A DNA stretch of 7,563 bases, taken from IMG/VR virus record IMGVR_UViG_2711768001_000001; one strand, given 5' to 3'. Shown in pieces: positions 7,357 to 7,563 of the stretch (within the stretch, counting starts at the first letter, position 1; each line of letters starts with the position of its first letter). This stretch comes from a virus (lineage: Duplodnaviria; Heunggongvirae; Uroviricota; Caudoviricetes). The notes under the pieces are model-generated. The model had not been told where the DNA came from. It did not search any database and was given only the letters and a program-made list of their open reading frames with translations. Made by a program: the position numbers and the translations under genes.

Positions 7357-7455
7357 ACCATCGTTACCACCTGGGCCAGTGATTAACACAGATGCTATAG
7401 CAACAGCCCCGCCACCAATAGCAACTGCAACAGCCTTGCGTAATGATGGCGACAT
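7357..7455 (-). CDS. SAR endolysin (phage 21 R / RrrD-type lysozyme), N-terminal 33 codons; remainder lost in the N gap
   Basis: ATG at 7455..7453 (SD GAGGTG 5 nt upstream) gives [33 protein letters not shown], near-identical in pattern to the Gly/Ala-rich signal-arrest-release domain of phage 21 lysozyme as I recall it ([33 protein letters not shown]). Confidence 0.8.
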
Positions 7456-7477
7456 TATTCACCTCTCGCAGCCTTAC
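7455..7477 (-). pseudogene. Pinholin (phage 21 S21 / EssD-like) 3' remnant, last 6 codons plus stop; rest of gene replaced by IS2
   Basis: Minus strand 7475..7455 reads AAG GCT GCG AGA GGT GAA TAA (KAARGE-stop), with the TAA overlapping the endolysin ATG (TAATG). This matches the recalled C-terminus of S21 (...RKAARGE). The IS2 end begins at 7478. Confidence 0.55.
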
Positions 7478-7563
7478 TAGACTGGCCCCCTGAATCTCCA
7501 GACAACCAGTATCACTTAAATAAGTGATAGTCTTAATACTAGTTTTTAGACTAGTCATTGGAG
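7478..7563 (+). mobile_element. IS2 insertion sequence, left end (IRL and regulatory region upstream of orfA); element continues beyond the window end
   Basis: 7478-7563 reads TAGACTGGCCCCCTGAATCTCCAGACAACCAGTATCACTTAAATAAGTGATAGTCTTAATACTAGTTTTTAGACTAGTCATTGGAG, which I recognise as the IS2 left terminus preceding the orfA start. One base may differ from the copy I remember. Not verified by search. Confidence 0.8.

Follow-up and report, generated by a model that had tools for sequence, protein, structure and literature searches.

In the stretch of viral DNA analyzed here (7,563 nt, hereafter the window), a complete copy of IS2 appears to have entered a phage-21-type holin gene by ordinary transposition, as a simple insertion that parts codon 66 from codon 67, and the window itself appears to be a fragment, bounded by IS elements, of a defective lambdoid prophage of Shigella sonnei. 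We put the probability of this explanation, taken as a whole, at about 0.9. The holin gene is split, with most of its product preserved in a fusion ORF on the far side of the element, and the disruption of the lysis operon seems a surer effect of the insertion than a knock-out of the holin.

Origin of the Window

The readable part of the window (positions 1–7106 and 7357–7563) is 100% identical to three S. sonnei loci (L006, L007, and L010) and at least 99.9% identical to the other five of eight S. sonnei loci compared, all retrieved through protein P0001, the fusion ORF that they carry (chromosomes of 4.8–5.0 Mb included). The gene order is the same in all eight, running from IS1 through cement protein, scaffold-like protein, Mu-F-like protein, broken portal, and terminase to a 254-aa ORF, a DedA-family gene on the other strand, Rz, endolysin, IS2, and the holin fragment. 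By this identity the window evidently is this S. sonnei locus, and what follows beyond IS2, outside the window, is with high probability the same as in the identical S. sonnei loci. The edges of the window consist of 90 nt of IS1 on one side and 86 nt of IS2 on the other. A 37-mer taken across the junction is present in two IMG/VR contigs (L002 and L003) and had no matches in the collection of species-representative genomes (one genome per species, with Shigella presumably subsumed under E. coli). The window found only partial head-module matches in the "phages" collection, and an Rfam scan of it at the gathering threshold gave no match.

The features of the lysis region are collected in Table 1. 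A masked run of 240 N interrupts this region, and its true length can be read from L006, where the equivalents of window positions 7106 and 7357 lie at 12255 and 11641, 613 nt apart. The run thus stands for about 603 bases and therefore an ORF of 185 aa called at 6898..7455 is an artefact, in which the start of the endolysin has been joined to Rz1 across the shortened run.

TABLE 1. Features of the lysis region of the window, with positions counted from its first letter.
Feature	Position	Strand	Remarks
Rz (i-spanin), 3' part	6854..7107	-	Stop at the 6854 end; PF03245 at 1.1e-28
Rz1 (o-spanin lipoprotein, 68 aa)	6898..7104	-	In another frame within Rz; MRKLKMMLFGASLIMVVGC...; PF06085 at 3.8e-21
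Masked run, 240 N	7108..7347		About 603 real bases: rest of the endolysin gene and 5' part of Rz
SAR endolysin (RrrD/R21 type), first 36 codons	7348..7455	-	Gly/Ala-rich N-terminal SAR segment; rest under the N-run
Holin 3' remnant	7455..7477	-	Duplicated K66 codon, codons 67–71 (AARGE), stop TAA at 7457..7455
Endolysin Shine-Dalgarno, GAGG	7462..7465	-	6 nt upstream of the ATG, inside the holin remnant, retained
Target-site duplication copy, CTTAC (5 bp)	7473..7477		Second copy beyond IS2, outside the window
IS2 left end (IRL side), first 86 nt of the 1331-bp element	7478..7563	+	Window ends inside IS2

A Phage-21-Type Holin Gene Split by IS2

The initial annotation had placed an IS2 terminus at 7478, directly against a minus-strand remnant that encodes KAARGE and ends in a stop overlapping the start of the endolysin, and reading and translating the window confirms this arrangement. 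The terminal letters of IS2 at 7478 (TAGACTGGCCCCCTGAATC..., also read as TAGACTGGCCCCCTGAATCTCCAGACAACC...) run to the end of the window. Translation of the minus strand from 7478 gives SKAARGE and a stop, with K-A-A-R-G-E-stop at 7475..7455, and the last A of the holin TAA is shared with the endolysin ATG (7455..7453), forming a TAATG at 7457..7453. Positions 7478–7563 are 100% identical to the end of the IS2 copy found in L002, L003, L006, L007, and L010, a copy identical at 1330 of 1331 positions to the one that PGAP annotates in L005 as "IS3-like element IS2 family transposase." In the identical loci the full element measures 1331 bp, its ends (TGGATTTGCCCC... and TAGACTGGCCCCC...) are imperfect inverted repeats that can be aligned if shifted by 1 nt, and its orfA (121 aa) and orfB (301 aa) match PF01527 (HTH_Tnp_1) and PF00665 (rve), respectively.

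To find the missing part of the holin gene and a 5-bp duplication, the initial annotation had proposed looking beyond IS2, and in the identical loci both are there. The pentamer CTTAC (GTAAG on the other strand) flanks IS2 on both sides in L002, L003, L006–L010, and L012, and it is present as a single copy at the empty sites of L001, L004, and L005 (...CGCAGCCTTACGCTT...). The order in L002 and L003 is the 1331-bp IS2, then CTTAC, then the remaining holin gene. Two other loci (L011 and L013) carry the same fusion ORF, their junction string being unmatched owing to small indels, and the far-side junction with the same holin allele was also found in L016, L017, and L019. The duplicated GTAAG spans the last two bases of codon 65 and the whole of codon 66, of the 71 codons of the gene, codon 66 (AAG) is the last before the insertion point and codon 67 (GCT) the first after it, and codons 1–66 are intact on the far side of IS2 in the identical loci. 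The 5-bp duplication, its single copy at the empty sites, and the rest of the holin gene beyond the element point to simple transposition and not to replacement. The initial claim of a replacement that spared only the final six codons does not hold, since codons 1–66 lie on the far side. The six-codon remnant itself needs a smaller correction: the codons for AARGE are indeed displaced, whereas the K codon lies inside 7473–7477 and is duplicated, so this side has only five holin codons of its own. As this case shows, when a contig ends within an IS, a gene that is only split may look as if it had been replaced.

A megablast search of positions 7348–7563 against 5,426 complete Escherichia coli genomes gave 100% identity over 7357–7477, with matches annotated as "lysozyme RrrD" and "class II holin family protein" and the homology ending exactly at 7477. 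The IS2/holin junction was spanned in none of the 5,426 genomes, which argues that the insertion is not an E. coli feature, and the full identity, ending cleanly at 7477, indicates that the features read here are no chance resemblance.

It was also proposed at the outset that the two genes form a phage-21-type pair of pinholin and SAR endolysin, and both partners support it. The intact alleles of E. coli VL40, CFSAN029787, and FDAARGOS_943 end in ...KRKAARGE and have the same TAATG junction to rrrD, so that the alignment identifies KAARGE as the C-terminus of a class II holin. The annotated holin and endolysin CDS overlap by 1 nt in L001, L004, and L005, and the intact holin allele matches PF04971 ("Bacteriophage P21 holin S") at 2.6e-35 (120.6 bits against a cut-off of 26). 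The full endolysin (165 aa), taken from loci identical over the readable start of the gene in the window, matches PF00959 at 9.5e-46 and, in the PDB, 4zpu (RrrD) at 5.6e-108 and 3hde ("Lysozyme," which we take to be R21 of phage 21) at 4e-107, i.e., both at about 1e-107. The part encoded in the window at 7455..7348 aligns one to one with the residues of the RrrD chain 4zpu, the weakly hydrophobic, Gly/Ala-rich N-terminus included. No NCBIfam model matched this holin or Rz1. The "lysis protein" of VL40 (L004, 10764–11234) maps onto the Rz of the window with an offset of 3910, and endolysin (165 aa) and Rz (156 aa) are called as intact ORFs in most of the S. sonnei assemblies shown. The same GAGG is present in the uninterrupted loci, and both this Shine-Dalgarno (7465..7462 as the gene reads) and the TAATG junction are untouched, i.e., the endolysin start and its ribosome-binding site do remain, as had been noted.

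Gene order and TAATG overlap are shared with S21/R21/Rz/Rz1 of phage 21 and with essD-rrrD-rzpD/rzoD of the cryptic E. coli prophage DLP12. This holin also has two starts, M1 and M4, and the motifs YWFLQW and LDQVSPSQ known from S21-68. In contrast to the phage 21 and DLP12 cassettes, here the holin is interrupted after codon 66 by IS2, with a foreign tail of 28 residues, and the cassette resides instead in a prophage whose terminase is of the PBSX type and whose head module has a DUF1073 portal.

The Holin–IS2 Fusion ORF

On the far side of IS2 an ORF of 94 aa joins holin residues 1–66 to 28 IS2-encoded residues (WICPYISRHLLSLNPLQARCRRYSRGER), followed by a stop. The protein search retrieved an exact 91-aa version of this fusion starting at M4, P0001, deposited as "lysis protein S [Shigella sonnei]" (UniProt A0A8B4LLQ0_SHISO) and present in 234 contig blocks, 18 of those larger than 1 Mb. 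The fusion allele still matches PF04971 at 1.7e-34 (118 bits, same cut-off of 26), keeping 62 of the 64 profile positions. Both transmembrane segments are kept, the second one whole, together with the dual starts M1/M4, the YWFLQW patch, and the LDQVSPSQ loop, and the 28-residue foreign tail is arginine-rich. When S21-68 was truncated stepwise from its C-terminus, pore formation was reported to be unimpaired until K56 (bioRxiv 10.1101/2021.04.20.440580), and in the S21-68 numbering the IS2 insertion falls after K63. With both transmembrane segments in place and the C-terminus of S21 reportedly dispensable for pore formation, the insertion does not by itself demonstrate the holin knock-out that the initial annotation had stated. 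The fusion protein may remain able to form pinholes, if at an altered time.

Further decay is seen in some copies of the far-side fragment. In L002 one nucleotide is missing from a T-run close to the start of the gene (~4700) and a Y has changed to C, L019 (67–130) has an internal deletion, its protein reading ...GVLGSHKRK, and frameshifted variants of the fragment were found as P0027, P0038, P0072, and P0091. This further decay argues against selection to keep the holin fragment.

Consequences for the Lysis Operon

The main effect of the insertion would be to disrupt the operon, as 1.3 kb of antisense IS2 would part endolysin, Rz, and Rz1 from the holin and from late transcription. RNA polymerase arriving from the holin side would have to cross, after the stop of the fusion, about 1.27 kb of untranslated antisense IS2 RNA and, without Q antitermination, such RNA should face Rho-dependent polarity. 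Long untranslated RNA is a classical Rho substrate, and the polarity of IS2 has historically been found to depend on Rho. A passage of PMC12095673 cites its reference 46 for the Rho dependence of IS2 polarity. The coupling between the holin stop and the endolysin start would be lost as well, since the reading frame closed by the former holin stop extends back over just 18 open codons, with no ATG among them.

Polar IS2 insertions are known classically from the gal operon and from lambda r32. The insertion described here is like them in its 1331 bp, its 5-bp duplication, its position within an operon, the dependence of the distal genes on an upstream promoter, and the polarity expected. It differs in its position, as only five codons of the upstream gene lie beyond it and the product of that gene is largely preserved.

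RNA polymerase modified by Q is expected to read through IS2 and to resist polarity, which weakens the polarity argument if Q and its promoter are still linked to the cassette. In S. sonnei itself, the holin fragment is cut off from the Q/late-promoter region by other IS elements. An IS110-family transposase gene adjoins the holin in L006–L009, L011, and L013 (element at 8558–9990 in L006 and likewise in the others), where upstream homology ends 11 nt before the ATG, and in L010 and L012 (~8196–9442) an IS3-family element takes the place of the four-tRNA region that E. coli relatives have between Q and the holin. These two upstream arrangements imply IS-mediated rearrangement within S. sonnei.

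The initial annotation had made expression of the endolysin dependent on read-through from IS2 or on an outward-facing promoter. The first is impossible for transcription of the transposase genes, which read rightwards, on the strand opposite to holin and endolysin and away from the latter. The known promoter in the IRL of IS2 faces inward. A scan for sigma-70 and terminator consensus on both strands of the holin–IS2–endolysin region detected no promoter, outward-facing IS2 promoters included, and nothing beyond shuffle expectation. By eye, and below the threshold of the scan, there is an outward promoter-like match at 8 of 12 positions (TTAAGA-N17-GATACT, minus strand, 7536..7508), which could conceivably be a source of low endolysin transcription and which we do not count as evidence. 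The best reading of this arrangement is that the endolysin and spanin genes would be transcriptionally orphaned and largely silent.

Alternative Explanations

Seen from the window alone, which displays only the remnant, the arrangement could also be drawn, as in the initial annotation, as an IS2 insertion accompanied by a deletion of the 5' part of the holin gene, with six codons being all that survives and the holin a true null allele. Deletions next to IS elements are known to occur, and the IS1 at the opposite edge of the window, with no duplication and with an unrelated outer flank, would be in keeping with such an event. However, the full IS2, the 5-bp duplication, and the holin 5' part are found at L002, L003, L006–L010, and L012, that is, at every located junction. 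L011 and L013 share the fusion ORF, the far-side junctions of L016, L017, and L019 bear the same allele, and L006, L007, and L010 match the window at every readable base, all of which makes a deletion very improbable. Still less credit can be given to an assembly artefact in which a contig end was wrongly joined to a repeat. The window indeed begins in IS1 (90 nt) and ends in IS2 (86 nt), as would be expected of short-read contigs breaking in repeats, but the junction and the target duplication lie inside complete or near-complete chromosomes of independent projects, which refutes it.

An alternative of another kind accepts the insertion and proposes a domesticated module, in which the holin(1–66)–IS2 fusion would be an active pinholin, with endolysin and spanins kept at low expression from an IS2-proximal or cryptic promoter and serving in lysis or envelope remodelling. 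It can draw on the two transmembrane segments and the 62 Pfam positions (of 64) that are retained, on the truncations that S21-68 is reported to tolerate, on the intact Shine-Dalgarno and the intact endolysin (165 aa) and Rz (156 aa) of most assemblies, and on the conservation of the fusion allele across 234 contig blocks. This conservation, however, is expected anyway in a young clone of very low divergence such as S. sonnei (PMC7373316), and the holin fragment has decayed further in L002, L019, P0027, P0038, P0072, and P0091. Nor is there a consensus promoter in the region scanned, and in most assemblies an IS110-family element stands 11 nt upstream of the holin ATG. We consider domestication distinctly unlikely, if less so than a deletion, and prefer the simple insertion of IS2 in a decaying prophage.

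State of the Prophage

The first 90 nt of the window are the end of an IS1 (reverse complement of GGTGATGCTGCCAACTTACTGAT...) that abuts nucleotide 4 of a DUF2184 major capsid gene (ATG at 94..92, minus strand), i.e., the break falls 4 nt into the gene. In L006 this IS1 measures 768 bp, has no target duplication, and is followed by an outer flank unrelated to the capsid gene of E. coli VL40, so that the capsid gene and all beyond it must have been deleted or else moved in a rearrangement. Nonsense codons at 3563–3565 and 3764–3766 divide the portal gene (DUF1073/PF06381; 2474–3940, minus strand) into three ORFs (58, 54, and 360 aa), whereas VL40 has sense codons at both sites and a single gene of 488 aa. 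With its capsid gene cut off, two nonsense mutations in its portal, and further IS insertions, the prophage is dead. The loss of programmed lysis timing put forward in the initial annotation is therefore moot, there being no phage for it to act on, and the split of the holin gene would hardly matter in the organism.

The locus fits a decaying remnant of the type produced by IS expansion in Shigella. Five IS types have expanded in every Shigella species, IS1 and IS2 among them, and the S. sonnei chromosome carries a median of 286 IS insertions, many of them fixed within the clone (Hawkey et al., 2020, PMC7373316). For its phylogeny the same study left phage regions out of the SNV alignments, and its text has only two mentions of phage (PMC7373316). 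The present locus is one instance of the IS-driven pseudogenisation described there (Hawkey et al., 2020, PMC7373316), with no difference of substance. The case is already deposited in public S. sonnei genomes and is ordinary, already known IS-driven prophage decay. What has been documented is one more IS lesion in a multiply inactivated S. sonnei prophage, and as such it matters little.

Between Rz and the genes of the terminase region there is a gene for a DedA/VTT-domain membrane protein of 170 aa (6253–6765, plus strand; PF09335 at 9.3e-14). It looks like a moron and is annotated as "DedA family protein" (WP_011069285.1) in E. coli relatives.

A nearly identical prophage with an intact holin is present in E. 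coli FDAARGOS_943 (L005; 99.8% over window positions 1–7106). In that genome a different IS2 (8817–10045) splits the gene for the terminase large subunit, and an IS1 lies between Q and the tRNAs. The same prophage is thus being hit independently by IS elements in different hosts.

IS2 in Other Phage-21-Type Holin Genes

Two modest points may be of more general interest, namely that the operon is broken but the holin protein itself almost complete, and that IS2 has struck the same few codons of related holins repeatedly. It might be speculated that the last codons of phage-21-type holin genes are a recurrent, perhaps selected, landing site of IS2. If the pinholin still works yet is uncoupled from endolysin and spanins, this would provide hosts with a repeatable route to disarm prophage lysis without gene deletion. 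We regard this idea as unlikely, albeit somewhat less so than the domestication discussed above. A scan of viral contigs for IRR followed by CTTACG returned only copies of the S. sonnei allele and one unrelated target, with no further independent events.

Other, independent IS2 insertions in PF04971 genes, which may point to a preferred site, were found through the shared IS2-encoded tail, a sample biased to one orientation and one frame. In L014 (3001–3337) an IS2 identical at 139 of 139 positions over the sequence compared sits at the homologous CGTAAG position, directly after the G, in a holin gene that has only 75% nucleotide identity to the S. sonnei allele (148/198 nt) and whose prophage surroundings differ. 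In L015 (3001–3336) the element is an IS2 variant, with 6 mismatches in 141, and is inserted 3 bp upstream. Finally, P0005 and P0042 correspond to IS2 insertions after holin codons 55 and 45, respectively.
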